A stretch of DNA of 64,000 nucleotides from a candidate division WOR-3 bacterium. GTDB lineage: Bacteria > Hydrothermota > UBA3072. This document shows positions 2,262 through 37,005 of the stretch, in pieces. The notes under the pieces were generated by a model. It was not told the origin of the DNA. It saw nothing but the letters and a program-made list of their open reading frames with translations, and made no database searches. The translations under genes and the position numbers were made by a program. Location of the stretch: positions 2,377 through 66,376 of the forward strand of contig JAGLZA010000024.1 in assembly GCA_023131835.1 (NCBI GenBank). Direction: 5' to 3'. Numbering within the stretch: position 1 is the stretch's first letter; each line of letters opens with the position of its first letter.

Positions 2262-3083
2262 TTACGCTTTTTCATTAATGTTTTTTAGAGAATCCTTATG
2301 TATTATATTTTTTGGTAAAAAACATTTGCCATCAGTAAGATAGTTAAGACTTACGGTGAAAAACTCTTCCCAATATTTGCGGTCTCCACTAGTTTTTGCG
2401 TGACAGCTTTTACACAATGGTACAAATAAGGGCTTCACGTCGTTACAGCAGACCATCTTGTTGTAGTTGACGTGGTGAACTGAAAGACGCTGTCCGTTAT
2501 CGGTTTCGTTTTTACCACATACATAACAGCATCTACCGAAGAAGTTTCGGACTCGCTCCTTAAATTCATTGTTGAATTTTATACAGTAAGGTTCGGATGA
2601 AATACCATCTTGCCAATTCCAGTGTTTTTCACCAGCCATTAAGTATCCTTTACCCCTCATTCCACTATTATCCCTCATATGTTGTTTATGTTCTTCTGAA
2701 TGTGGTTTACCTAAATGCGCATCTCTATTCTTTTGGTTAGATTCTTTAGTATGATGTTTACCATACATACCATGTTTCTCACCTGCAATTAAGTATCCTT
2801 TTCCATACATACCAGTTTCTTCACCTCTCTTACCAAACATTGGACATTTATCACCTGTCCTACCATACATAGGATTATTTTCATCAGAATGTTTCTTACA
2901 CCAACCTTCTGATACTATTAAGGCATTAGGGAATTGCTTTCTATATTCATGCATAGTTATACCGTGTGTTTTAAGGTGAGTAACTGTGATAAACTCAAAT
3001 TCTCTACCACAAATTTTACATTTAATTTTTGGTAGTATCCTATGGTTCTGCTCTTCTTCATCAAATGTTTTTTGAATAATCAT
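2262..3083 (-). CDS. HNH homing-endonuclease-like protein (HNH-1): N-terminal C2H2-like zinc finger, NUMOD3-like G(K/R)xG repeats, C-terminal HNH/zinc-binding nuclease motif.
   Basis: The N-terminus reads KCKICGREF...THLKTHG. Repeats NPMYGRTGDKCPMFGKRGEETGMYGKGY follow. The C-terminus reads CCYVCGKNETDNGQRLSVHHVNYNKMVCCNDVKPLFVPLCKSCHAKT, which is the HNH signature. The gene starts 8 nt after the stop of the 2518-aa gene. The C-terminal ~100 aa is near-identical to the paralogs at 10908 and 36052. Confidence 0.8.
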   Translation of the reverse strand: MIIQKTFDEEEQNHRILPKIKCKICGREFEFITVTHLKTHGITMHEYRKQFPNALIVSEGWCKKHSDENNPMYGRTGDKCPMFGKRGEETGMYGKGYLIAGEKHGMYGKHHTKESNQKNRDAHLGKPHSEEHKQHMRDNSGMRGKGYLMAGEKHWNWQDGISSEPYCIKFNNEFKERVRNFFGRCCYVCGKNETDNGQRLSVHHVNYNKMVCCNDVKPLFVPLCKSCHAKTSGDRKYWEEFFTVSLNYLTDGKCFLPKNIIHKDSLKNINEKA

Positions 3084-10907: not shown

Positions 10908-11774
10908 TTAATTTTTATTCACCTCCTTTGGTATGAAACACTTACCATCAGTTAGATAGTTTAGACTTACGGTGAAAAACTCTTCCCAATATTTGCGGTC
11001 TTTTTGGGTTTTTGCGTGACAACTTATGCATAGGGGTACGAACAATGGTTTCACGTCATTACAACATACCATCTTGTCGTAGCTTACGTGGTAGACCGAA
11101 AGATGCCGTCTGTTTTCTGTTTCGTTCTTACCACATATATAACAGCATCTATCAAAGAAATTGCGAACTCGTTCTCTGAGGTCATCATCAAATTTTATAC
11201 AGTAAGGCTCAAATGAGATGCCTCCTTTCCATGAAGAATGATTTTTGCCTCTATTATTTTCATCTAACCATTGTTGACCTTCTTCTGTAGCATAAAATTC
11301 AGTTTTAGTTTTACTGCTTTTTTCAGCTGCTTTCCTAATTCCTTCATCTGTCTCTTTAGTTTTACCATGCATATGATTATTTTCACCTAATTGAGCTTTA
11401 CTCTGCTTCTGCTTAGCCTCTTCTGTTTGGTGCTTACCAAACATAGGATGGTCTTTGCCATATCTATGAACACCAAACATAGGATGGTCTTTACCTGTAG
11501 GATATTTACCAAACCTTGGATTATCTTTACCAGTTTTTCCATAATTTGGATGATTTTTACCTGAATTATCCCAATGATTATCTCTCAATTTTTGTTTATA
11601 ACTATCTGATACTAATAAAGCATCTGGAAACTGTTCTCTATACTCACTCATAGTTGTACCATGTGTTTTGAGGTGAGTATTTGTAATTTGCTCAAATTCC
11701 TCACCACAAATTTTACATCTAATTCTTATTGTTCCCTTAATAAATTTACTATCTAAAGTTTGTTGATTACTCAT
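10908..11774 (-). CDS. HNH homing-endonuclease-like protein (HNH-2), paralog of 2262..3083.
   Basis: N-terminus RCKICGEEFEQITNTHLKTHG. G-K-rich NUMOD3-like repeats follow. The C-terminal HNH module CCYICGKNETENRRHLSVYHVSYDKMVCCNDVKPLFVPLCISCHAKT is nearly identical to HNH-1 and HNH-3. Confidence 0.8.
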   Translation of the reverse strand: MSNQQTLDSKFIKGTIRIRCKICGEEFEQITNTHLKTHGTTMSEYREQFPDALLVSDSYKQKLRDNHWDNSGKNHPNYGKTGKDNPRFGKYPTGKDHPMFGVHRYGKDHPMFGKHQTEEAKQKQSKAQLGENNHMHGKTKETDEGIRKAAEKSSKTKTEFYATEEGQQWLDENNRGKNHSSWKGGISFEPYCIKFDDDLRERVRNFFDRCCYICGKNETENRRHLSVYHVSYDKMVCCNDVKPLFVPLCISCHAKTQKDRKYWEEFFTVSLNYLTDGKCFIPKEVNKN

Positions 11775-13073: not shown

Positions 13074-13440
13074 AATGCTTGATGGAACGATTAAATAGTA
13101 GTTGGATACCTCCAAGGAAGTAGATTACCCAAATCCCCGTCTGCATTATCGCAACCAACGCAAGCGGCATCCCGAGCTTTTCGAATAGGATAGGAGCTAT
13201 CCAGACAATACCAAGCAAACCTCCTGTAATTAGCTGGAGTCCACTTACGAGCATCGATCCCATTGAGAACTGTTCATCATATTTTGTGATGTCTCCAGAG
13301 GGATCATAGCCTGTTAGTTTCTCTATTTCAGCTGTCTGGTCTTCTAAAGCAAGTTGTGTGGGGAACATCTCAAGAGAATCAACAAGTCCAATACAACTCG
13401 TCAACAAAATACAAAAAAGTGCAAGATCGTATGCCTTCAC
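13066..13440 (-). CDS. Small membrane protein (124 aa).
   Basis: N-terminal signal/TM and a C-terminal hydrophobic segment. Sits between the Vsr-like gene and the FN3-like gene. Confidence 0.45.
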   Translation of the reverse strand: MKAYDLALFCILLTSCIGLVDSLEMFPTQLALEDQTAEIEKLTGYDPSGDITKYDEQFSMGSMLVSGLQLITGGLLGIVWIAPILFEKLGMPLALVAIMQTGIWVIYFLGGIQLLFNRSIKHYE

Positions 13441-14654
13441 CGCTCTCCCTCCTTCTTTTCACTATCTACCCACCTATCTAATATTTTTTGAGGGATTACA
13501 TAATCACTCTCTTTTCCGTGAAATTTTAAGATCTTTTGTATCATTGTATCTCTATTTTTAAGTTCGTGTTCCCAAATTACTAATAGATCCCATCCGCATT
13601 TTTTAAATAAGTCTATTCGTATTTGTGGATCTTCTCCTTCATGCCAATAATCGCCAAATAAGTCGATAGCTTTTTTCTTTCCGTTTACGTTTACGAAATC
13701 AGGGATTTTACCGCCTATAGATATTCCCAAATCGTAGTTTCCGTTGTATTTGTATTCGTTAGGGATTAGGTTTTGGACTATACTGTCTGTATCTTTTTCT
13801 GGTTGTGTTGGCTTTCTATTATAAACACCTTTTTTAAGGTTTTCAATTATAATTTCTCTTAAATTTTGTCTGTGCTTTATTCCTTTTTCAGTCTGATAAT
13901 ATTCCTTTTTTGCCTTACTCATCATTTTGATAAATTCTGGGTCTTGCCAGTTTTCAAGCATTCTTTTACTTCGTTTTAAACCTTGTTCCTTTAACAATAA
14001 CTTACCTTCTTCTGTCTGATAAAAAACAATCTTTTTTTTACTTATTATCTGTTTAGATTCGTCTGTATGTTTATGACCAAAAAAATGATTTGCTTCTCCC
14101 TTAGTATCCATAACACTTAATGTTTTTTTAATTTTTTCTATTGTCTCTTCTGTTTGATTTTTTCCATAAAATGGATTTCCTTCTCCACTATATTTTTCAT
14201 TTTTTTGTTCCTTAAGCTTAATACCTTCTTCTGTTTGATAAAAACTTAGTAATGACTCACTAACTTGCATTAATCCTGGATCAGTTTCTTTTGTTTTTCC
14301 TTTACACCATACTTCATCAATTTCACCGTTTACATACCTTTCTTTATAAGTTTCACCTTGTTTCTTTACTCTATCATCATTTTCTTTAGTTAATCCTTTG
14401 TTCCATGCAACCCTACCTCTGTTTTGATGTCCAGCAATATATTTACTCCCTTTCCTAGATACCCTTCCACCACAACCACATTTGCAAAAAGGTAGTTCTG
14501 GTGGTAGTCTTTTGCCTTCTTTAATTTCTTTGTTTATTTTACGTGTTTCATTTCTCTTTCTTTTTATTTCTTCTGTAAGAATATAATGTCCCTGTATAAA
14601 TCTTCTTCCAGGACTTGCATATCCTCCGCATCCACATTCACATAATTTTTTCAT
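13437..14654 (-). CDS. Vsr-like (PD-(D/E)xK) endonuclease with N-terminal double zinc ribbon and NUMOD3 repeats (Vsr-1).
   Basis: The N-terminus has CECGCGG...GHYI and CKCGCGG...GHQNRGR. Repeated YQTEEG...NPFYGK.HTEE units (NUMOD3-like) follow. The C-terminus reads IDLFGDYWHEGED...GWDLLVIWEHEL, which resembles the Vsr/DUF559 nuclease core. The gene starts about 40 nt after the 1521-aa gene. Confidence 0.75.
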   Translation of the reverse strand: MKKLCECGCGGYASPGRRFIQGHYILTEEIKRKRNETRKINKEIKEGKRLPPELPFCKCGCGGRVSRKGSKYIAGHQNRGRVAWNKGLTKENDDRVKKQGETYKERYVNGEIDEVWCKGKTKETDPGLMQVSESLLSFYQTEEGIKLKEQKNEKYSGEGNPFYGKNQTEETIEKIKKTLSVMDTKGEANHFFGHKHTDESKQIISKKKIVFYQTEEGKLLLKEQGLKRSKRMLENWQDPEFIKMMSKAKKEYYQTEKGIKHRQNLREIIIENLKKGVYNRKPTQPEKDTDSIVQNLIPNEYKYNGNYDLGISIGGKIPDFVNVNGKKKAIDLFGDYWHEGEDPQIRIDLFKKCGWDLLVIWEHELKNRDTMIQKILKFHGKESDYVIPQKILDRWVDSEKKEGER

Positions 14655-14693: not shown

Positions 14694-17600
14694 TTACGAA
14701 GCCAGATTTTTCTCCCTCCCTGTCGTAGTTATAAAAACTGCAATGCCCAGTGCGGTAGCAATTCCAAGCAATATCGCACCTGTTATAAGATTATCTGTAG
14801 GACTAAACCAGCCTATTCCAAAGAGGATCCACCCTCCTAAAGGAAGTAGAACAGCTCCAATTTTCAGGGTTGTCCCAGAAAAAAGAAGACCCCCAAAAAT
14901 AAGAAGTCCGACGCTCAATAGTTGGTAATATCCTGGATGATCCTCCCACCCAGCAAAACTAATTAGCGGATGGTTATACCGAAAGAACACAGACACCGAT
15001 TCCCCAAACTCTCCAGCCGTTGTATGAGTTACATTAAATCTCATAATGTATGTTTCCCCTCTGTAATCATCCTTATGAATAGGACAACTATAATTCCAAA
15101 CATTGTCATCAATGTTAACAGGTCCACAACAATAAGTAAAATTGCTTAAATTAAGCTTCTCTATACCTGTTGTCTTATTTACCGTATATACATAGTAACT
15201 ACCTGGTGAACTTGTTCCACTTATCGTATTGTTATACGTAAAATTCAGAAAAGCATGGGTATCATTCTTTTCCATTGTGAAATTCCATTTAATCTGCTCA
15301 CCAAACAGTTGAGGTTCAACATCAAAGAATCCCGTCCTACCCACTATCACGATGTATCGTTCTTCTTTTGGATAGATAGTTAGTGTTTCGTTTACGTCGC
15401 TACCTTTAGTAAAAGTCATTGTATATTTGATTGTCTCAACCATCAAAAACGTAATACTTCCTGTTGAATCGGTCGTTCCGTTCATGGTGGTGTTTCGGAG
15501 TGTATCACTACCATCTGGCGTAAATCCCAAAAACTCCCACAACCAGTCCCATGAACCCATTGATATTTGGATACCAATCGCTATTACATTTACGTCAGAA
15601 ATGGGATTACCATAAATGTCTTGAACCCGAAATTCAACTAAATGAGGTGGATACTGTAAAGCAGGACCCTCTTTCTCTTCTAACATATATATAGTTTGAG
15701 AAGTGTCTTGTCCAATAAAAATATACTCTGTATGTGTATAATACCCTTCTGTACTTACTTGAAGACGATATATACCGTATGTAATATTTCTGAATACTAT
15801 AGTACCGTTTGTGGTTTCACTTTGTATCTTATTAAACACAGCACTAAAACTGGTAATGATATTATAAGTTTCCAAGTCTTTTACGTCTATCGTAAGACTA
15901 AAATATTCACTCATTAAAATATTATGATACGTTCTACCTCTTTCTACTACTTGTATATTATCTATCCATCTCTTATAGTTAGAATCAAAAGTTTGTGAAC
16001 CAAACATTATTTCAAACCATTCGAGACCGTCTGTAGTAAAATTATTATCATAAGCATCAACAAAATATAATCTTCTTAAGTTCCAATCAGTTCCTACAGA
16101 AACATTATCCCAATACATGTATCCATAGTCACCACCTGAGTAGTTTTCGTAGTCTACTGTATAGTTATACTCCTCTTTTTTTGATACTAATACATAATCA
16201 AGAGATGTAATATACGGTTTTTCCCAAAATTCAATTCGGCTCAGCTCACCAGTTTTTGAAATATCCGAAGCATCAATTGGTGAAAGAAAATATTTAGCGA
16301 GATATCCATCTTCATATCCGCTTCCACCAGCTCCTTCTCCATATATAGAAGCAGTACCTTCCTTCTTATTTGTTGTATCTGCAGATAAATCAAGACAGTT
16401 AGTATCCCATCCCACCCACATAATAAAATGTAAATCATCTATTTTTGTTGTTACACTACCTGATTTAGTACTTTTCCATTCAAAATAGTTTATTTCTGAT
16501 AAATTACATGTTCCTACTTCTGTACCTTCTGATAATAAGAGTGCTGTCATGTTCCAATATGTCTCAAAAACATCTTTATTCACTTCCCATGCGATTGTAT
16601 TGGTACTATTATCTCCATTTGATCCAATTGTAATTGTTATGTTTGTACTACTTATATTTGCTTTATTCAATATTTGTGAATAGAAATAGAGTAATCCATG
16701 CACTTTGGATACTTTTGAATCTATCGGTGTTATAAAAGTCTTCATAAAATCTATTGTATTGTCTCCTGTTGAATTCAATGCTCCTGTTCCCTCTATAAAA
16801 TCAGTATCTACTAAATTAGGATTACCTATTTTGTATTGATAAGAGATATTATAATTTGTATCATTTTCCATACTACCTGTGCAGATTATCTGAATTTTCC
16901 CATCTGTATAATTAATTTTATAATCTGTATCCTTTACAAAAGTGGTTGTGATATTTGTAACTGTTTCTGAGCTTGAACGTAAATCAACATGGTTTAATTG
17001 TACCCATGAGCTATTACACGTACCACTATCAAATGAGTCATTAAAAATAGAAGCATTACCCCAATAACCATTATTTGTTAATGAATCGCACTTATCCAAT
17101 GTAGTATTATAAAAATTTGCTACATCACAATTATCTAATATATGAATTGCATCATGTGCACGAACAGATTCGCTTGGACTACGTCCAAATCCTGTCCTTG
17201 TAGCATATAGATTATATGAACTATCTCCTAGTCCATCAGGATAATCAAAAATGTAATATCCCCATGTATTTGACAGAGTAGTATCACTCCATGTATCATT
17301 AGCAATATGAACAGTTGCGTATGATACTGGTTGGTATAGAGGTGTATCCAGCACTACACCAGCAATTGAGGATTTTCTGGTTTCAGAGTCGCGATGAGAT
17401 GGATATAAATATAGATTTATGTCATACGTACCAGATCGAATTATTTCAGTCGTATAGTTATTATGTTGATAGGTTATACTAACTCCACTTCCGCTAGTAT
17501 ACTCATACGTATATGTAATAGTATATGAAGTGTTTAATTCCATCGTACCTGTTGAAACTCTCTTAATCTTAACATTTGAATAATCTATTACGTAATCAAT

Positions 17601-19259
17601 ACCATATGTAAAGTTATGTGTTCCATTATAGACTTGTTCGTTTGGTATTGCAAATATTGCTGAACCATTCACCAATTGTATCCATTCTCCATCTGAAGTA
17701 TTAAATGATTCAGTTGTAGTTAGAGTGCCATATGTAGATGAACCACCAGCGTTTACTTGAATTGGAACATCTGTATAAAATGACATTTCTTCACTTGTTA
17801 CTGGATCAAGAAACTCGTAATAACCATTCGCGTCAGTAGTGTCTTTGTACCATTGATTGTTATGATACATACTAACACTCATGTTAGATAGTGTTGTGCC
17901 ATCTACTAAGTTAAGAGGGTTGGTAGCATCATAGCATGTTCCTCGTATAAACACTGCATCAGTCATATATGTATAAGCATATGCTAAGTCAACTATATCT
18001 GTTGGAGGCGACATGTCAATATTAGGTTCTGTATCTTTAACCAAAACTGCAAATGCTGTCCCTACATCCCACGTAATGGTTGAGGTGAAATTGACATATC
18101 CATCCTCTGTAAATACTTCCTGTTCGCCTACTTGCTCGTAGCTACTATCAAATATTCGTACGTAATAATCATTGGCACCAAAATCAGGGGTATCAATATG
18201 ATATGATATATCTACAGTGCTTCCAATTGCGTACTCAGTTAATGCAAAATCAATCCAACTAGCTTGACCTAATTCTTTGAAGAATAACCAATCAGTTGCA
18301 ATTGGCTCTTCTTCAGTACTTTTATATAATTGAAATGAGTATAATCCATAATGGTCAGTTTGAAATAGTTTTGTCCAATTATAAACCACAAATCCAGTAG
18401 GTTTTTGTGTAGCATTTCCTGCGTCTTTTACAATTGTTGTGTTGTAATATTCATCGTACGTTAATCGTTTTACTTTTATTGTATATTCTGCAGCAGTGTA
18501 AGAGGCTTCTGGGATGGTTTTAACTGCCCAGGAAATATCTAATTCGTCATTATCTAATTCTGTTATTGTGTGATTTCTGAACGTTCCAGTACTACAAGGT
18601 TCTGCTCCTATTCCTATTATTCCTGAAGATGTCGTTATATCATCAATATGAAAGTCCCACGCACCCCAAATGTAACCATTTGCTTTAATTCTCATATAAT
18701 AAGGAGTCGCTTCACATACTCCAATATTACCCCTATTAATTCCATTAATATATAAGTATACATTACCGCCTTCATAAATCAATTCCCAACGGCTGTTGGA
18801 ATACGAGACAGCATAATCTCTCATATCATCACTAATAAAGATCTGATTGCTTTCTTTATCATAGAAATATATATATAAATGTGAGGATGTAGTAAAATCG
18901 GTATCACGAAAAGTAAATGCCCAGTAATCACTAATAGTGGGTTTAATATTGGTTATATTTGCATAAGGATAATTCGAACCAACCGCATACATACGTATTG
19001 AACTTGAATAAGAATACCCACCTGATGGGGTTATGATTGATGCAATAGAACCTGATGCACTAAATAACCATAAATCCGTTAAATCATCTACATCACCAAA
19101 CCCATCCCCATCCATATCCCAATGATTCTGCACAGTATCTTCAAATCCAGCAGCTCCACTAACCAATACCAAACATACTAATATTCCAACAACTATTGCT
19201 AACTTCATACTACAATTTCTGATTTTATTATTACTCGTTGTTGTAGTGAGTATATTCAT
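14694..19259 (-). CDS. Giant (1521 aa) secreted N-glycosylated surface/adhesin-like protein with a multi-TM C-terminal anchor.
   Basis: Signal/TM at KLAIVVGILVCLVLVSGAAG. A calcium-site-like HWDMDGDGFGDVDD follows. Sequons are dense. CarbopepD_reg-like segments include GTCYDATNPL...TDANGYYEF. The C-terminus has several TM helices. Confidence 0.85.
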   Translation of the reverse strand: MNILTTTTSNNKIRNCSMKLAIVVGILVCLVLVSGAAGFEDTVQNHWDMDGDGFGDVDDLTDLWLFSASGSIASIITPSGGYSYSSSIRMYAVGSNYPYANITNIKPTISDYWAFTFRDTDFTTSSHLYIYFYDKESNQIFISDDMRDYAVSYSNSRWELIYEGGNVYLYINGINRGNIGVCEATPYYMRIKANGYIWGAWDFHIDDITTSSGIIGIGAEPCSTGTFRNHTITELDNDELDISWAVKTIPEASYTAAEYTIKVKRLTYDEYYNTTIVKDAGNATQKPTGFVVYNWTKLFQTDHYGLYSFQLYKSTEEEPIATDWLFFKELGQASWIDFALTEYAIGSTVDISYHIDTPDFGANDYYVRIFDSSYEQVGEQEVFTEDGYVNFTSTITWDVGTAFAVLVKDTEPNIDMSPPTDIVDLAYAYTYMTDAVFIRGTCYDATNPLNLVDGTTLSNMSVSMYHNNQWYKDTTDANGYYEFLDPVTSEEMSFYTDVPIQVNAGGSSTYGTLTTTESFNTSDGEWIQLVNGSAIFAIPNEQVYNGTHNFTYGIDYVIDYSNVKIKRVSTGTMELNTSYTITYTYEYTSGSGVSITYQHNNYTTEIIRSGTYDINLYLYPSHRDSETRKSSIAGVVLDTPLYQPVSYATVHIANDTWSDTTLSNTWGYYIFDYPDGLGDSSYNLYATRTGFGRSPSESVRAHDAIHILDNCDVANFYNTTLDKCDSLTNNGYWGNASIFNDSFDSGTCNSSWVQLNHVDLRSSSETVTNITTTFVKDTDYKINYTDGKIQIICTGSMENDTNYNISYQYKIGNPNLVDTDFIEGTGALNSTGDNTIDFMKTFITPIDSKVSKVHGLLYFYSQILNKANISSTNITITIGSNGDNSTNTIAWEVNKDVFETYWNMTALLLSEGTEVGTCNLSEINYFEWKSTKSGSVTTKIDDLHFIMWVGWDTNCLDLSADTTNKKEGTASIYGEGAGGSGYEDGYLAKYFLSPIDASDISKTGELSRIEFWEKPYITSLDYVLVSKKEEYNYTVDYENYSGGDYGYMYWDNVSVGTDWNLRRLYFVDAYDNNFTTDGLEWFEIMFGSQTFDSNYKRWIDNIQVVERGRTYHNILMSEYFSLTIDVKDLETYNIITSFSAVFNKIQSETTNGTIVFRNITYGIYRLQVSTEGYYTHTEYIFIGQDTSQTIYMLEEKEGPALQYPPHLVEFRVQDIYGNPISDVNVIAIGIQISMGSWDWLWEFLGFTPDGSDTLRNTTMNGTTDSTGSITFLMVETIKYTMTFTKGSDVNETLTIYPKEERYIVIVGRTGFFDVEPQLFGEQIKWNFTMEKNDTHAFLNFTYNNTISGTSSPGSYYVYTVNKTTGIEKLNLSNFTYCCGPVNIDDNVWNYSCPIHKDDYRGETYIMRFNVTHTTAGEFGESVSVFFRYNHPLISFAGWEDHPGYYQLLSVGLLIFGGLLFSGTTLKIGAVLLPLGGWILFGIGWFSPTDNLITGAILLGIATALGIAVFITTTGREKNLAS

Positions 19260-20554: not shown

Positions 20555-21019
20555 TCACTCTTCTTCTAAGGCTTCTTCCTTTTCTGGCGGTGTTTCACCC
20601 TTGTTCAAATACACACCTACCAAGTTAGTTATTAACTCGACACCCGTATCTATTGCATCCGCCTCCGCACCTGTTAGTTCAAACCGTTTAAGATTGTTTA
20701 GTAATGCAGCTTGTCCTGAAAGACTATATATAGCTTCTTCTAACGAAGGTTCTACAGGTTCTTCTTCATCTAAGGGTTTTTTTACCTCTTCTACTTCCTT
20801 AACTGGTGGTTTTTCACCTTTATGCTCTTTTCTAATATGCCATGATAATTTCTGAGCATTTTTAAATGGTTCACCACAGAAACCACAAACGTATTCTTTT
20901 ACTTTTGGTTCTTCCACCTCAACATCTTCTCCTTTTAAGTACGCTTTTTCTTTTTGCTTGATTTTTTCTTCTAATAACTCGTCTTCTGTCTTAATCTTAC
21001 GTCTACCTCTTATTTTCAT
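20555..21019 (-). CDS. C2H2-type zinc-finger protein with acidic flanks (154 aa).
   Basis: YVCGFCGEPFKNAQKLSWHIRKEHKGEKP is a canonical C-x2-C-x12-H-x4-H finger. Confidence 0.6.
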   Translation of the reverse strand: MKIRGRRKIKTEDELLEEKIKQKEKAYLKGEDVEVEEPKVKEYVCGFCGEPFKNAQKLSWHIRKEHKGEKPPVKEVEEVKKPLDEEEPVEPSLEEAIYSLSGQAALLNNLKRFELTGAEADAIDTGVELITNLVGVYLNKGETPPEKEEALEEE

Positions 21020-21396: not shown

Positions 21397-22209
21397 CTAC
21401 CATCTAACATCCGGCATCTGTACATCTGGCATCTTAGTCCCGATTTTAGCCTCTGTCTTTCTCTTAGTTGGTTTAATGGTACGTAGAGTACCTGAAAGCA
21501 CATCCATTCCTGTACCACCCAAACTGATATCAGGTAGCTTCACATCTGGTGTTCTGGTTTTAATTCTTGATCTCGCTGTCTCTTTAAGTATACCTTTGCC
21601 GTGTTTACCTGCTTTTTTTATTGTTTCTTTTACGTCTTCACCAAATTCTGATACATCTACAGTCCCTCCTAATAGTCCTCCTAATAATGGTTTTCGTCTC
21701 TCAAATTTAGCTCGTGCCTTTTCACGTCCACGTTCCTCTATTTGTTCTTTTGCTTCTTCTAGATAGGCTTCATGTTCAGCTTCTCTAAGAGTTTTGCGTT
21801 CTTCTCTGACTTCTTCACCTGCAATTCCCTTAACTAAACGTTCTTTAGCTTCTCCAACTTCACCTTTGACTCTTGTTTTGATGGCACCGCTTATTTCACT
21901 TACTAAACCATCACGTTCTAACTTACGTGGCTTGCGTGGTTTATAATCCAATATACTTGGGTCAGTCTTTTTCTGTAAAACATCCTCTAATATACCGTCA
22001 CGTTTTTTACGTTTGTAATCTATCATGCTCGGTTTGAATCTTCTTTTTATTGCACCACCTAAATCACCGAAAAAACCATCGCGGGTTGGATCCAAAGGAC
22101 GACAATCAAGGATATTTGGTACTCCATCGTTGTCAGTATCAAAAAATGGATCGTATGAGAGGGCTTTTTGTATACGATCTTTTTTTCTTTTTGTCATATT
22201 TTTTTTCAC
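21397..22209 (-). CDS. Highly charged, probably disordered protein with an N-terminal thrombospondin-type-3-like calcium-binding motif (270 aa).
   Basis: The N-terminus MTKRKKDRIQKALSYDPFFDTDNDGVPNILDCRPLDPTRDG matches DxDxDGxxNxxDCxP. The same N-terminal module opens the 1211-aa protein at 26139..29774. It is preceded by the conserved leader AAAGAAATAGGAGGTGAAAAA. Confidence 0.6.
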   Translation of the reverse strand: MKKNMTKRKKDRIQKALSYDPFFDTDNDGVPNILDCRPLDPTRDGFFGDLGGAIKRRFKPSMIDYKRKKRDGILEDVLQKKTDPSILDYKPRKPRKLERDGLVSEISGAIKTRVKGEVGEAKERLVKGIAGEEVREERKTLREAEHEAYLEEAKEQIEERGREKARAKFERRKPLLGGLLGGTVDVSEFGEDVKETIKKAGKHGKGILKETARSRIKTRTPDVKLPDISLGGTGMDVLSGTLRTIKPTKRKTEAKIGTKMPDVQMPDVRW

Positions 22210-22229
22210 CTCCTATTTCTTTTTAATTA
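22203..22229 (-). promoter_or_regulatory. Conserved extended leader/RBS element (AAAGAAATAGGAGGTGAAAAA on the coding strand), copy 1.
   Basis: A near-identical ~22-nt motif recurs upstream of at least three consecutive genes. Degenerate copies (..CCTCCTAT..) lie upstream of many others. Confidence 0.5.
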
Positions 22230-24367: not shown

Positions 24368-24673
24368 TTATTCACCACCTGTCGAATCCCATCCCCTGCG
24401 GATCGCATTAACTACGCTCCAAACAAAAAGTGTAATGAGCATTATTATGGGAAATACCTCGAAAAAAAGATAAGAATCCGCTTGATTTCTGTGCACCTCT
24501 TCCATGTACTTATCTGGATTATCTTGCATATACTGATCCGTAAATTTTGATGTTTCTTCAACCATCGGACTTATACCCATCTGAATAATTGCAAAAAGAA
24601 CAATAGTTACGAAAACTACAAAAACAGAGAATGCAATCGATACTCCTTTTTTGTTTTCTATTAATCCTACCAT
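24368..24673 (-). CDS. Small two-TM membrane protein (101 aa), tandem paralog of 24726..25040.
   Basis: Shared NKKGVSI motif, TM helices at both ends and NPxxxM in the loop. Confidence 0.5.
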   Translation of the reverse strand: MVGLIENKKGVSIAFSVFVVFVTIVLFAIIQMGISPMVEETSKFTDQYMQDNPDKYMEEVHRNQADSYLFFEVFPIIMLITLFVWSVVNAIRRGWDSTGGE

Positions 24674-24725: not shown

Positions 24726-25040
24726 TTACCGATAAAAAGTTTTATATTCTTTACGGATACTTGTGATAAATAACCAAATCACCAAACCAAGGCAAATTAT
24801 GAATGTAGAGGCAGAATAAAATTTTAATGAATCATTAAGACTAGTCCTCCATATACCCATATTTTCCGAAGGATTTTCTGCCATATACGAATTAGAGAAC
24901 GATACAACTTCTTGTAATACTGGTCCTAAACTCATATTTATGATTATAATACAGATCAAAAGTAAGAAGGTTATAAAAATTGACAAAACAATTGAAACTC
25001 CTTTTTTATTTTTAATCAATCTTTTTAGTTCCTTTGTCAT
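24726..25040 (-). CDS. Small two-TM membrane protein (104 aa), tandem paralog of 24368..24673.
   Basis: See the preceding feature. Confidence 0.5.
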   Translation of the reverse strand: MTKELKRLIKNKKGVSIVLSIFITFLLLICIIIINMSLGPVLQEVVSFSNSYMAENPSENMGIWRTSLNDSLKFYSASTFIICLGLVIWLFITSIRKEYKTFYR

Positions 25041-25043
25041 TAT

Positions 25044-26114
25044 TTATATCACTCCCTCCTTTCTTAATAGACTTAATACAAACTCTTCACCTTCTGGTCT
25101 CATGATATCACTTTCCCATATAAAAATTACTTTCCATTTATATCTTCTATAATGTTTCTCTCTGTTTTTTAAGTCATCAAAATGAACTCTCTTATTAAAT
25201 AATGCACTATGCCAATAATCACCTAATATTTCTATTACTATTTTCCTACCGTTACATTCTATAAAATCAGGATTTACTAATTTTTCCTTCCCTATCCAGA
25301 GTTGTCCATCTCCTACATACCTAAATGGTAAATTATACTTTTGACAAATTTCTTGAAAAAATAATTCTATATTTGTAGGTTTTCTATTAAGATCACCATT
25401 TTTTAATCTTTTTACTAATGCCTCTCTATTCTTTTGTCTTGTTTCTTTACTACGTTTTTTACCTTTTAATTTCTCACCATATTTTCTTATTCTTATGTCA
25501 GTATATTTAGTCTCTCCCTTATTCCATATCTCTATTTCCCCATTAGCAAACTTTTTTTTCTTTACTTCGCTATTTCTTTCTCCTGAAATCCTTGCTATTT
25601 TTGGATCCTTCATTGGATTATTTTTTTCGTCTTTCCATCTTTCAGATTTTTGTTTTTTTAATTTATCTCCTTCTTCAGTTTGATAAAAATCATTTAAACC
25701 ATTACTAATGTCATTTTTAAGACTATCATCTAAAACCTTTCCTAAATTAATATCTCTTAAATATTCTTTTACCTCTTCTGTATGTTTATGTCCATAAAAA
25801 CCATTATTTTTACCTTTTGTATTATGACCATATATAAATCTATTTCCAGGTTTGGTTACTCTCTGTCCACAACCGCATTCACAAAAAGGTAATACTGGAG
25901 CTGGTTGCTTACCCTCTCTAATCTCTTTATTTATTCTTTGTGTTTCTTTTCCTTTTTGAATCGCTTCTTTAGAAAGTTTTCTACCTCTATTTTGGTGTCC
26001 ATTAATATACCTATTTCCATGTTTTGCCTCTCCTCCACATCCACACTCACATAGTGACATTTTTACATCTCCCAAAAAAATCCTTTTATGTCTTTCATCT
26101 TTTAATAAATACAC
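25044..26114 (-). CDS. Vsr-like endonuclease with N-terminal double zinc ribbon and NUMOD3-like repeats (Vsr-2).
   Basis: CECGCGG...GHQNRGR and CECGCGQ...GH ribbons. NGFYGHKHTEE and YQTEEG repeats. C-terminal IEILGDYWHSALFNKR...KWKVIFIWESDI nuclease core. The gene starts about 25 nt after the 1211-aa gene. Confidence 0.75.
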   Translation of the reverse strand: MYLLKDERHKRIFLGDVKMSLCECGCGGEAKHGNRYINGHQNRGRKLSKEAIQKGKETQRINKEIREGKQPAPVLPFCECGCGQRVTKPGNRFIYGHNTKGKNNGFYGHKHTEEVKEYLRDINLGKVLDDSLKNDISNGLNDFYQTEEGDKLKKQKSERWKDEKNNPMKDPKIARISGERNSEVKKKKFANGEIEIWNKGETKYTDIRIRKYGEKLKGKKRSKETRQKNREALVKRLKNGDLNRKPTNIELFFQEICQKYNLPFRYVGDGQLWIGKEKLVNPDFIECNGRKIVIEILGDYWHSALFNKRVHFDDLKNREKHYRRYKWKVIFIWESDIMRPEGEEFVLSLLRKEGVI

Positions 26115-36051: not shown

Positions 36052-37005
36052 TTAACCTTTTTTAGTTTCCTTCTTTGGTAAAAAGCATACACCGTCTGTT
36101 AGATATTCCAAACTTATGGTGAAGAACTCTTCCCAGTATTCACGGTCTTTAAGTGTCTTTGCGTGGCAACTTCTGCATAGGGGTACAAAAAGAGGCTTTA
36201 CATCATTGCAGCAAACCATTTTATCATAATTGACATGATGTACGTCGAGTTTACGTCCGAGTTCACTTTGTCCAACTCCGCATACGTAGCAACAACCGTT
36301 GAAAAAATCACGGACTCGTTCTTTGAGATCATCATCAAATTTTTCGCAGTACAGTCCAAACGAGATACCACCTTGCCATACAGGACTTTTTTCACCTGAC
36401 ATACCATACATATGGTTCTTTTCTCCTCTTTGAGATTCACCACTTTTATTTGCAACTATTGGATCTTTCATAGGATTTTTATCAGATGACATATAATCAC
36501 TACGATTTTGTCTAAATTCTATACTACTCATTGCCTCACTATGATTCTTTCTTATTATAGGATTACTCATAGGATTATTTTCACCTTTCATATTTTCAGA
36601 CCGCTGTTGCATAAACTTTATACCGTCCTCTGTTTGATAAAACTCCAAAAGAGAACCGCTCATTTTCTTTTTTGTATCCTCAGATGCTTTTAATCCTAAA
36701 TGATCCTCTCTAAGTTTCTCCCTTTGTTTTATTCCTTCTTCTGTTTCAAAAAATTCTTTTTTTGTTATACTTAAAGTTTCTCCATACTTCTTTACTCTAT
36801 TATCTGTCTCTTTTGTTTTACCAACATTCCATGGTTTTCTACCCTTCATTGAACCACTATGTTTCTGGTGTGACTCATCACTAACCATTTTTACATTAGG
36901 AAACCTTACCTTATATTCGTCATAGGTAATATTATGTGTTCTTAGATGATTCCCTGTAATACGATTAAATTCCTTCCCACAAATTAAACAAACCACTTTA
37001 CTCAT
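36052..37005 (-). CDS. HNH homing-endonuclease-like protein (HNH-3), first gene of the long minus-strand block.
   Basis: N-terminus VCLICGKEFNRITGNHLRTHN. NPM..P NUMOD3-like repeats follow. C-terminal CCYVCGVGQSELGRKLDVHHVNYDKMVCCNDVKPLFVPLCRSCHAKT. Confidence 0.8.
   Translation of the reverse strand: MSKVVCLICGKEFNRITGNHLRTHNITYDEYKVRFPNVKMVSDESHQKHSGSMKGRKPWNVGKTKETDNRVKKYGETLSITKKEFFETEEGIKQREKLREDHLGLKASEDTKKKMSGSLLEFYQTEDGIKFMQQRSENMKGENNPMSNPIIRKNHSEAMSSIEFRQNRSDYMSSDKNPMKDPIVANKSGESQRGEKNHMYGMSGEKSPVWQGGISFGLYCEKFDDDLKERVRDFFNGCCYVCGVGQSELGRKLDVHHVNYDKMVCCNDVKPLFVPLCRSCHAKTLKDREYWEEFFTISLEYLTDGVCFLPKKETKKG

Follow-up and report, generated by a model that had tools for sequence, protein, structure and literature searches.

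Why do two proteins that are otherwise unrelated begin with the same stretch of about 45 amino acids (aa)? The question is raised by a 64,000-nt stretch of contig JAGLZA010000024.1, referred to below as the window, where a basic 266-aa protein and a basic 1205-aa protein (the large protein) carry homologous N-termini built around a putative calcium-binding loop. The analysis indicates that this N-terminal module, or tag, defines a large undescribed tag-cargo class, located on uncultivated archaeal-type contigs that resemble those of viruses or mobile elements. The function that we propose for it, with somewhat less than even confidence, is that of an address or anchoring device that docks diverse cargo to a common partner. 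The two genes and their tags lie at the following positions.

21397-22197, minus strand: gene of the 266-aa basic protein (isoelectric point, pI, 9.7), the first tagged cargo, delimited by its open reading frame (ORF), its Shine-Dalgarno sequence and the starts of its homologues
22207-22214, minus strand: Shine-Dalgarno sequence AGGAGGTG, 9 nt upstream of the ATG at 22197
22060-22197, minus strand: N-terminal tag of the 266-aa protein (aa 1-46), with a basic helix MTKRKKDRIQKAL and the core PFFDTDNDGVPNILDCRPLDPTRDG at 22075-22149
26139-29756, minus strand: gene of the 1205-aa basic protein (pI 10.0), the second tagged cargo, delimited by its ORF
29616-29756, minus strand: N-terminal tag of the 1205-aa protein (aa 1-47), with the core PFSDTDKDGVQNIFDCKPLDPTKHG at 29634-29708

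The sequence-only reading of this DNA had claimed homologous N-termini of about 45 aa on two otherwise unrelated proteins. Both ORFs, with the N-terminal sequences that it quoted, were found when the sequence was read again, and their homology was upheld by pairwise alignment: a Smith-Waterman score of 129 joins residues 1-45 of the 266-aa protein to residues 1-47 of the 1205-aa protein, far above the scores of shuffled whole proteins (45 ± 7; z = 12) or of proteins whose N-termini only were shuffled (24 ± 5; z = 21). The remainders of the two proteins score 47, compared to 47 ± 7 in shuffles, and are unrelated, as had been stated. Within the window, a six-frame scan confined the strict motif to these two ORFs. 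Moreover, a hidden Markov model (HMM) made from 78 module instances in other cargo families, leaving out the window sequences and the families to which they belong, matched just the same two ORFs among 879 six-frame segments of the window (E = 6.5e-18 and 5.3e-16; the runner-up has an E of 3). Further, 9 of the 19 core codons that encode identical amino acids differ synonymously, and the copies are old and selected at the protein level; the two tags are old paralogues under purifying selection, and neither a recent duplication nor an assembly artefact. Because both proteins are lysine-rich and the common segment is short, one might suspect chance similarity, low-complexity bias, a recent duplication or an assembly artefact. 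The tests refute these sources to near certainty, considering the z-values of 12 to 21, the E values of 1e-16 to 1e-18 from the independent HMM, the synonymous divergence expected of old copies, and the retention of the module both among the 24 + 13 homologues and across over 1,000 further protein clusters.

The start codons of both genes had to be corrected. The smaller protein had been given 270 aa and a GTG start at 22209, in the ORF list as in the sequence-only reading, and this GTG lies inside the Shine-Dalgarno sequence; ATG 22197 is the real start, because the Shine-Dalgarno sequence lies upstream of it and because the 24 homologues all begin with MTKRK. Likewise, the large protein had been given 1211 aa (ORF 26139-29774), and its real start is ATG 29756, directly behind the upstream ORF, which stops at 29761. 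The reported absence of a signal peptide held in both proteins, where the peak 15-residue hydropathy within the first 40 aa is -0.2 and -0.3. The 266-aa family has 24 members with identities down to 36%; the tag is its most conserved segment, and its invariant residues are F18, D20, D22, D24, N28, D31, C32 and P34. Pfam, a PDB profile search and AlphaFold2 gave no recognisable domain for the 266-aa protein, and Pfam and PDB profile searches gave no confidently assigned effector domain for either window protein. The AlphaFold2 model of the 266-aa protein has a predicted local distance difference test score (pLDDT) of 50.8, which is of low confidence, and was too poor for a fold search; with long helices at residues 102-172 and disorder, it predicts a protein that is largely helical or disordered.

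The module extends far beyond the window. When 1.84 billion cluster representatives were searched exhaustively with its profile, 1,221 protein clusters matched at E <= 1e-3, including 29 at E <= 1e-10. The sequence-only reading had imagined a conserved N-terminal tag on divergent cargo, to be sought in further proteins: the motif is indeed widespread, is joined to at least 40 unrelated cargo families, and is reiterated before each cargo domain in multi-domain proteins. The exhaustive search replaced an earlier word-index search with a 46-column profile, which had returned short unrelated peptides and missed known members. A scan of GTDB genomes yielded just three generic matches of the thrombospondin type 3 (TSP3)-like kind, inside ordinary giant or bacterial proteins.

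Counts of cargo, position and architecture refer to the best 150 of the 1,221 clusters. In particular, the strict D.D.D...N..DC.P core is present in 139 of the 145 best matches outside the two window families. Of these 145, 92 carry a single copy, located within the first 110 aa, and 47 carry several; ordinary bacterial secreted proteins, whose TSP3-like arrays are tandem, account for the few exceptions. When cargo families were separated by the absence of BLAST similarity, the 121 proteins with a single N-terminal tag fell into 40 cargo clusters with no mutual similarity. The leaders of these proteins are basic (24% Lys + Arg), and a signal-peptide-like stretch, with a hydropathy above 1.6, was seen in none of the 121. 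A listing of the C-termini of tagged proteins revealed no universal second signal there.

The unit of evolution is the tag-cargo cassette, and it occurs in three arrangements: solo tagged proteins, as in the window; runs of adjacent tagged genes; and multi-cargo polyproteins. Identical cargo clusters are found behind solo N-terminal tags and behind internal tags, and in multi-tag proteins each tag stands ahead of a globular segment, with a median tag spacing of 164 aa. For example, among the related loci and contigs (numbered L; related proteins are numbered P), L028-L030 have four consecutive genes that are each headed by a tag (7523-10819 in L030), whose cargo comprises a Zn-ribbon, a double ParB-like domain and two HExxH peptidase-like domains. 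Two tagged genes are adjacent in L007, and in L004-L006 a multi-tag protein is followed downstream by a second tagged ORF. P0042, whose leader is of the large-protein type and whose residues behind the tag are those of the 266-aa type, shows shuffling around the tag.

Several features accompany these cassettes. Immediately upstream of the L030 array is an 810-aa S-layer-like secreted protein, and downstream of the array is a candidate SPFH/band-7-like gene that was assigned by eye. P0037, P0040, P0044, P0046, P0050, P0069, P0080 and other multi-cargo proteins share an extreme N-terminal leader, MNIDKSIKKMLG..., and several of them have a segment of about 40 aa, SIFFPFTxPxVRxPxGR..KG, ahead of the first tag; the leader or the SIFFPFT-type segment may be a further signal. 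Some of the cargo could be related to known domains. The profile of the 'LYHGT' cargo matches the RNA 2'-phosphotransferase Tpt1/KptA (E = 1.3e-6) and, weakly, diphtheria-toxin-type ADP-ribosyltransferases and PARP16 (E = 0.07-0.8); the 'EGRHRA' cargo has weak matches to sulfiredoxin and SbnI, of the ParB/Srx folds (E = 0.3-0.7; best 0.32); and one HExxH cargo is above the Pfam threshold for the putative metallopeptidase DUF6782, with 27.2 bits.

The placement of one tag ahead of every domain in multi-cargo proteins also speaks for a different role, where the module marks the positions at which polyproteins or pre-proteins are cut, and where solo leaders are propeptides. The co-encoded zincin-like peptidase cargo could perform the cleavage, or the module could cleave itself when triggered by calcium, for example through an N-to-S acyl shift at the invariant Asp-Cys bond. 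Within these proteins and gene arrays, no partner is commoner than the HExxH peptidase cargo; the D-C-x-P motif is invariant; and there is a precedent in the DdrB protein of phage P1, which is autoprocessed by its own metallopeptidase domain before packaging (PMC5512222). We regard a processing boundary as unlikely, however: a cleavage site has no need of a 25-residue invariant calcium loop, the Asp-Pro further downstream in the module is not conserved, and neither the purge of cysteine from the cargo nor the cysteine-free untagged orthologues, both described next, would be explained.

Neither window protein has a cysteine other than Cys32 of the tag. Outside the tags, 164 tagged proteins together contain 53 cysteines in 65,242 residues (0.08%), and 130 of the 164 have none there, as do 35 of the 51 that are at least 500 aa long. 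Within the same loci, the tagged ORFs have 8 extra cysteines in 12,144 residues (0.07%), compared to 625 in 61,849 residues (1.0%) for other ORFs on the same strand, an odds ratio of 0.065 (Fisher p = 1e-37). Untagged orthologues of the large protein (1,239-1,369 aa) have zero cysteines; because they too are cysteine-free, it is the cargo class itself that lacks cysteine, and the tag adds exactly one thiol. We infer that cysteine-free cargo is suited to an oxidising extracellular milieu or to unfolded passage through a narrow channel, and that the cysteine of the tag is reserved for a specific reaction.

A cysteine-free composition is typical of proteins that are moved unfolded through narrow channels. 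PMC9769942 notes that few autotransporter passengers contain cysteine pairs. The cysteine-free cargo would also be accommodated by a non-viral export or translocation signal, where the tag and its basic leader send effectors (ADP-ribosyltransferase, nuclease, peptidase) from an archaeal cell to the outside or into a neighboring cell, and where calcium outside the cell would act as a ratchet by driving their folding, as in the case of RTX substrates. Such a signal would further account for the polymorphic-toxin architecture, with its constant N-terminal module and variable cargo, and for the pilin-like small proteins, giant surface proteins and AglB cluster that adjoin tagged genes. To us it nonetheless seems improbable. 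Near the tagged genes, neither an ATPase nor a channel gene of a secretion system was recognised, several of their contexts have virus- or plasmid-type replication and DNA-modification genes (PDDEXK-DEAD helicase, RFC-like AAA protein, QueD and GTP cyclohydrolase I), and homing-endonuclease-like genes are dense around them.

The anatomy of the module bears on its proposed calcium binding. Across 180 instances, the consensus consists of a variable basic stretch, often a helix, followed by N-P-F-G-D-x-D-[GKR]-D-G-V-[PI]-N-x-[LF]-D-C-x-P-x-[ND]-[PK]-x-[KR]-[QHD]-[GD], where D20 D22 D24 G25 N28 D31 C32 x P34 are invariant or nearly so. The putative ligands at loop positions 1, 3, 5, 9 and 12 follow the pattern of EF-loop and TSP3 calcium sites, with Asn at position 9 in 89% of instances and Asp in a further 10%. 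An AlphaFold2 model, calculated from a 91-sequence alignment, predicts a helix at residues 4-15, an irregular loop at 16-41 and a helix at 42-51, with a pLDDT of 72-77 over residues 11-40; its only PDB match is thrombospondin-1 (2rhp_A), with a root-mean-square deviation of 0.4 Å over 21 residues and a non-significant E of 6.4. The TSP3-like calcium-binding motif claimed by the sequence-only reading thus stands as a resemblance at the level of the motif and falls short as a family assignment, as the module stays beneath the Pfam gathering threshold for TSP_3 (25 bits); "TSP3-like calcium loop" denotes a well-founded resemblance, not membership. The full-length window proteins have no match to Pfam TSP_3 at E <= 0.1. 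Excalibur (PF05901) was matched by one of four module sequences, with 12.1 bits (E = 0.27) against a cut-off of 22. The Pfam EF-hand and dockerin models do not match the module, and a dockerin was the only such PDB sequence match (E = 2.1). Overall, no Pfam or NCBIfam model reaches its threshold on the tag, and the PDB profile search returned nothing significant.

The weak similarity to Pfam TSP_3 and Excalibur raises the prospect of a generic structural calcium spacer, that is, an ordinary solo TSP3-type repeat that stiffens or stabilises extracellular proteins and has no addressing role. Related motifs do occur in ordinary giant secreted proteins and in bacterial tandem arrays (L008, P0061, P0068, P0070, P0095 and P0129). 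There is little probability, in our estimate, that the tag is such a spacer. Its copies are solo and not tandem, and they are strongly biased to the N-terminus or to the position directly upstream of each cargo domain; signal peptides are absent; a single unpaired cysteine is present, with no disulfide pairs; and a conserved basic helix lies upstream of the loop.

The reading that we prefer, whereby the tag docks its cargo to a common partner, would operate as follows, with calcium binding, the location in a particle, docking and release all being deduced. The common partner would belong to an extracellular particle, probably a virion, and the tag would attach the cargo to that partner. Bound Ca2+, and possibly a disulfide formed by the single cysteine, would stabilise this attachment, and the cargo would be freed in the reducing, calcium-poor cytoplasm of the next host. 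The sequence-only reading had suggested a signal for targeting, docking or packaging, which is plausible; the bias of the tag to the N-terminus, the organisation in cassettes, the likeness of the cargo to polyvalent effectors and its lack of cysteine would favor it indirectly.

Several results weigh against this reading. That the particle would be a virion is itself deduced, because Pfam, PHROGs and NCBIfam, applied to the window proteins and about 70 neighboring or related ORFs, recognised no gene for a capsid, portal or terminase in any of the contexts, and no relatives were found in IMG/VR or, by tblastn, in GenBank phage and archaeal-virus records. BLAST clustering of neighboring ORFs produced no partner gene that is common across lineages. 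Calcium binding is proposed from motif similarity only, and four module sequences score 12.6-16.5 bits against Pfam TSP_3 (E = 0.007-0.11), below the threshold of 25. A sister-clade large protein has no tag and yet lies at the same genomic position, and the tag is thus dispensable for the large-protein cargo, because this orthologue is tagless and keeps its place. Finally, a cellular-looking N-glycosylation cluster with AglB adjoins the tagged genes, and the region could be chromosomal.

The large protein itself has several further features, all encoded on the minus strand.

29211-29630, minus strand: two 33-aa repeats, KPLPSYVxPSTKEAYxELKxxGYDVSAYRSxFE, at 29532-29630 and 29211-29309, directly behind the tag
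27057-27626, minus strand: invariant GS...DxD...D region, YGSAAKRAQMERGITPHDIDIEV ... FDVHP, with G27, S28, D43, D45 and D113 invariant in the alignment
26346-26453, minus strand: perfect proline-rich spacer, (PPVT)x9, read from the sequence
26142-26225, minus strand: conserved C-terminal peptide ...PWAAIQTSVKNPILSADELIKKML, from the alignment of the large-protein family

Its homologues are P0025-27, P0041, P0047 and P0078, within a family of relatives of 700-1,400 aa of which the majority are tagged; P0028 and the syntenic large proteins of L001 and L002 have a different N-terminus in place of the tag. The 33-aa repeats are found also in P0025. The GS...DxD...D region resembles the core of a Pol-beta-type nucleotidyltransferase, which is a guess at the level of the motif; the PDB profile search returned nothing relevant for it and Pfam nothing at all. 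Profiles of the 266-aa family and of the large-protein family likewise had no significant PDB match. The C-terminal peptide PWAAIQTSVKNPILSADELIKKML recurs in divergent form at the C-termini of most family members, tagless ones included, and may be a second interaction motif.

The tagged genes of the window are part of a syntenic block that is also present on 70-77-kb contigs from other samples, in the order of a C2H2 zinc-finger protein, the large protein, two hydrophobic proteins of about 100 aa, the 266-aa family and DUF2341 giants. Genes of the window in and around this block, including the homing-endonuclease-like ones, are as follows.

30973-31872 and 20555-21019, minus strand: C2H2/Di19-type zinc-finger proteins, which flank the tagged genes
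24368-24673 and 24726-25040, minus strand: two paralogous proteins of about 100 aa, with N-termini ...KKGVSI and then a long hydrophobic stretch
14694-19259, minus strand: 1521-aa giant surface-type protein, with an N-terminal hydrophobic segment and C-terminal membrane helices
3092-10648, minus strand: 2518-aa giant surface-type protein, with DUF2341, Ig_Rha78A_N and CarboxypepD_reg
2262-3083, 10908-11774, 13437-14654, 25044-26114, 33117-34094 and 36052-37005, minus strand: six homing-endonuclease-like ORFs, with NUMOD3 and/or ROS_MUCR-type zinc-finger motifs

In L001 and L002, too, the block starts with the conserved 299-aa zinc-finger protein, and the two paralogues of about 100 aa have counterparts there at the equivalent position. 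The N-termini of these paralogues are like an archaeal class III, type IV pilin-like signal, and a second hydrophobic helix lies near the C-terminus; they are candidates for pilin-like proteins or, alternatively, for the small capsid proteins with two helices that spindle-shaped or pleomorphic archaeal viruses have. One of the homing-endonuclease-like ORFs sits between the large tagged gene and the pilin-like genes, and the density of such ORFs is unusual for a cellular chromosome. The 1521-aa giant has many N-x-S/T sequons and a separate EF/dockerin-like loop, WDMDGDGFGDVDD, near 19118. The block could be a virus, a provirus or a surface-structure island.

From 40 kb onwards (40384-64000 and beyond), the window is occupied by a glycan-biosynthesis cluster of about 35 kb, with several radical-SAM enzymes (some of them B12-binding), GT4, a flippase and DegT aminotransferases. 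The cluster continues beyond the window into AglB/STT3, annotated as 'archaeosortase A system-associated', and for this reason the 180-kb contig is archaeal in character; its placement by NCBI in a candidate division WOR-3 bacterium looks like the mis-binning of an archaeal-type contig. No tRNA or Rfam match was found in the window. Elsewhere, the contigs with P0040 (L004-L006) carry QueD and GTP cyclohydrolase I of the 7-deazaguanine pathway, a PDDEXK-DEAD helicase and an RFC-like AAA protein, a context that is virus- or plasmid-like and archaeal-flavored; TnpB/Cas12f-like and eRF1-like genes are present there as well. Further tagged lineages adjoin LamG-type giants.

Beyond docking as such, a broader proposal can be made, which we hold to be possible and put forward with considerable doubt: that uncultivated archaeal viruses or mobile elements have a previously unknown delivery system, where a calcium- and redox-gated module loads exchangeable, cysteine-free effectors into particles and frees them in the next host. 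The module would possibly form a covalent disulfide or cleave itself, and the effectors would be ADP-ribosyltransferase-, nuclease- and peptidase-type domains, together with large pilot-like proteins. N-terminal targeting tags and TSP3-type calcium loops are already known; what is new is their combination, a solo single-cysteine tag that heads dozens of cysteine-free cargo families. The searched literature held nothing on such a tag in archaeal viruses or polyvalent proteins, and no family for it was found in Pfam, NCBIfam, PHROGs or PDB.

If the tag is an address, one profile of 25-40 residues would flag, across metagenomes, every protein that these elements send with their genome, and an almost wholly 'hypothetical' sequence space would be opened to targeted experiments on how archaeal viruses enter cells, on effectors that counter defence and on the packaging of proteins. 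If the delivery system exists, the same profile would read its 'delivered proteome' straight from metagenomes. The almost complete purge of cysteine from the cargo, together with one invariant cysteine in the tag, is an unusually clean, testable chemical clue that points to disulfide anchoring, unfolded translocation or thiol chemistry. Moreover, foreign cargo could be loaded into particles with the tag as a small calcium-responsive handle.

Among known calcium modules, the TSP3 repeat (PF02412; bacterial TSP3-like, PF18884) is similar in having a DxDxDGxxDxxD loop that is followed by Cys-Pro and an N..Q element, and it is here that the best, though weak, Pfam and PDB matches fall. However, TSP3 repeats form tandem arrays with inter-repeat disulfides, whereas the module is solo, or has copies 56-731 aa apart, and has one unpaired cysteine. 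This cysteine is shifted by one residue (D-C-x-P, hence C-x-P in place of x-C-P), and the module is borne by basic proteins that lack a signal peptide and remains below the gathering threshold. Dockerin-cohesin pairs offer a parallel in organisation, as a small calcium-dependent module with the same ligand positions (1, 3, 5, 9 and 12) is carried by many enzymes and docks them to a common scaffold. In contrast to the module, a dockerin has two loop-helix motifs and is usually C-terminal on secreted proteins; compared to the EF-hand and the dockerin, the module has a single loop, followed by C-x-P and an irregular segment, and its next helix starts only from residue 42. BLAST clustering of neighboring ORFs also found no cohesin-like partner. 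Excalibur differs in being a DxDxDGxxCE motif on secreted proteins, with a threshold that the module misses.

Other systems are comparable in logic. The FrpC-type module performs calcium-triggered self-processing at an Asp-X bond, and polymorphic toxins such as MuF join a constant N-terminal trafficking domain to a variable C-terminal effector; neither the FrpC module nor the trafficking domains of polymorphic toxins have a sequence relationship to the tag. Polyvalent proteins consist of effector domains and are delivered along with the DNA of phages and conjugative elements (Iyer et al. 2017, PMC5512222). Their repertoire is matched in the wider tagged family by putative zincin-like metallopeptidase, ADP-ribosyltransferase, ParB-like and possible Pol-beta nucleotidyltransferase domains, which occur solo or strung in one polypeptide. 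They differ in that the tagged family is cysteine-free and has the same 25-40-aa tag ahead of every domain, and in that the window proteins have no confidently assigned effector domain; the terms 'calcium', 'thrombospondin', 'TSP' and 'linker' are absent from the text of PMC5512222.

The closest functional analogue is the capsid-targeting sequence of phage T4, which is conserved among internal proteins that otherwise differ widely (PMC3012670). In IPI-III and Alt, this short N-terminal peptide is the only common feature, and it directs the proteins into the particle for delivery together with the DNA (PMC3012670). The T4 peptide has no sequence similarity to the module: it has about 10 residues, contains no calcium loop and no cysteine, and is removed by the prohead protease. 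For the tagged family, packaging and cleavage are proposals, and the host is archaeal-type. The two are alike in that unrelated proteins of one element are tagged in the same way, with two such proteins in the window and up to four adjacent ones in L030.

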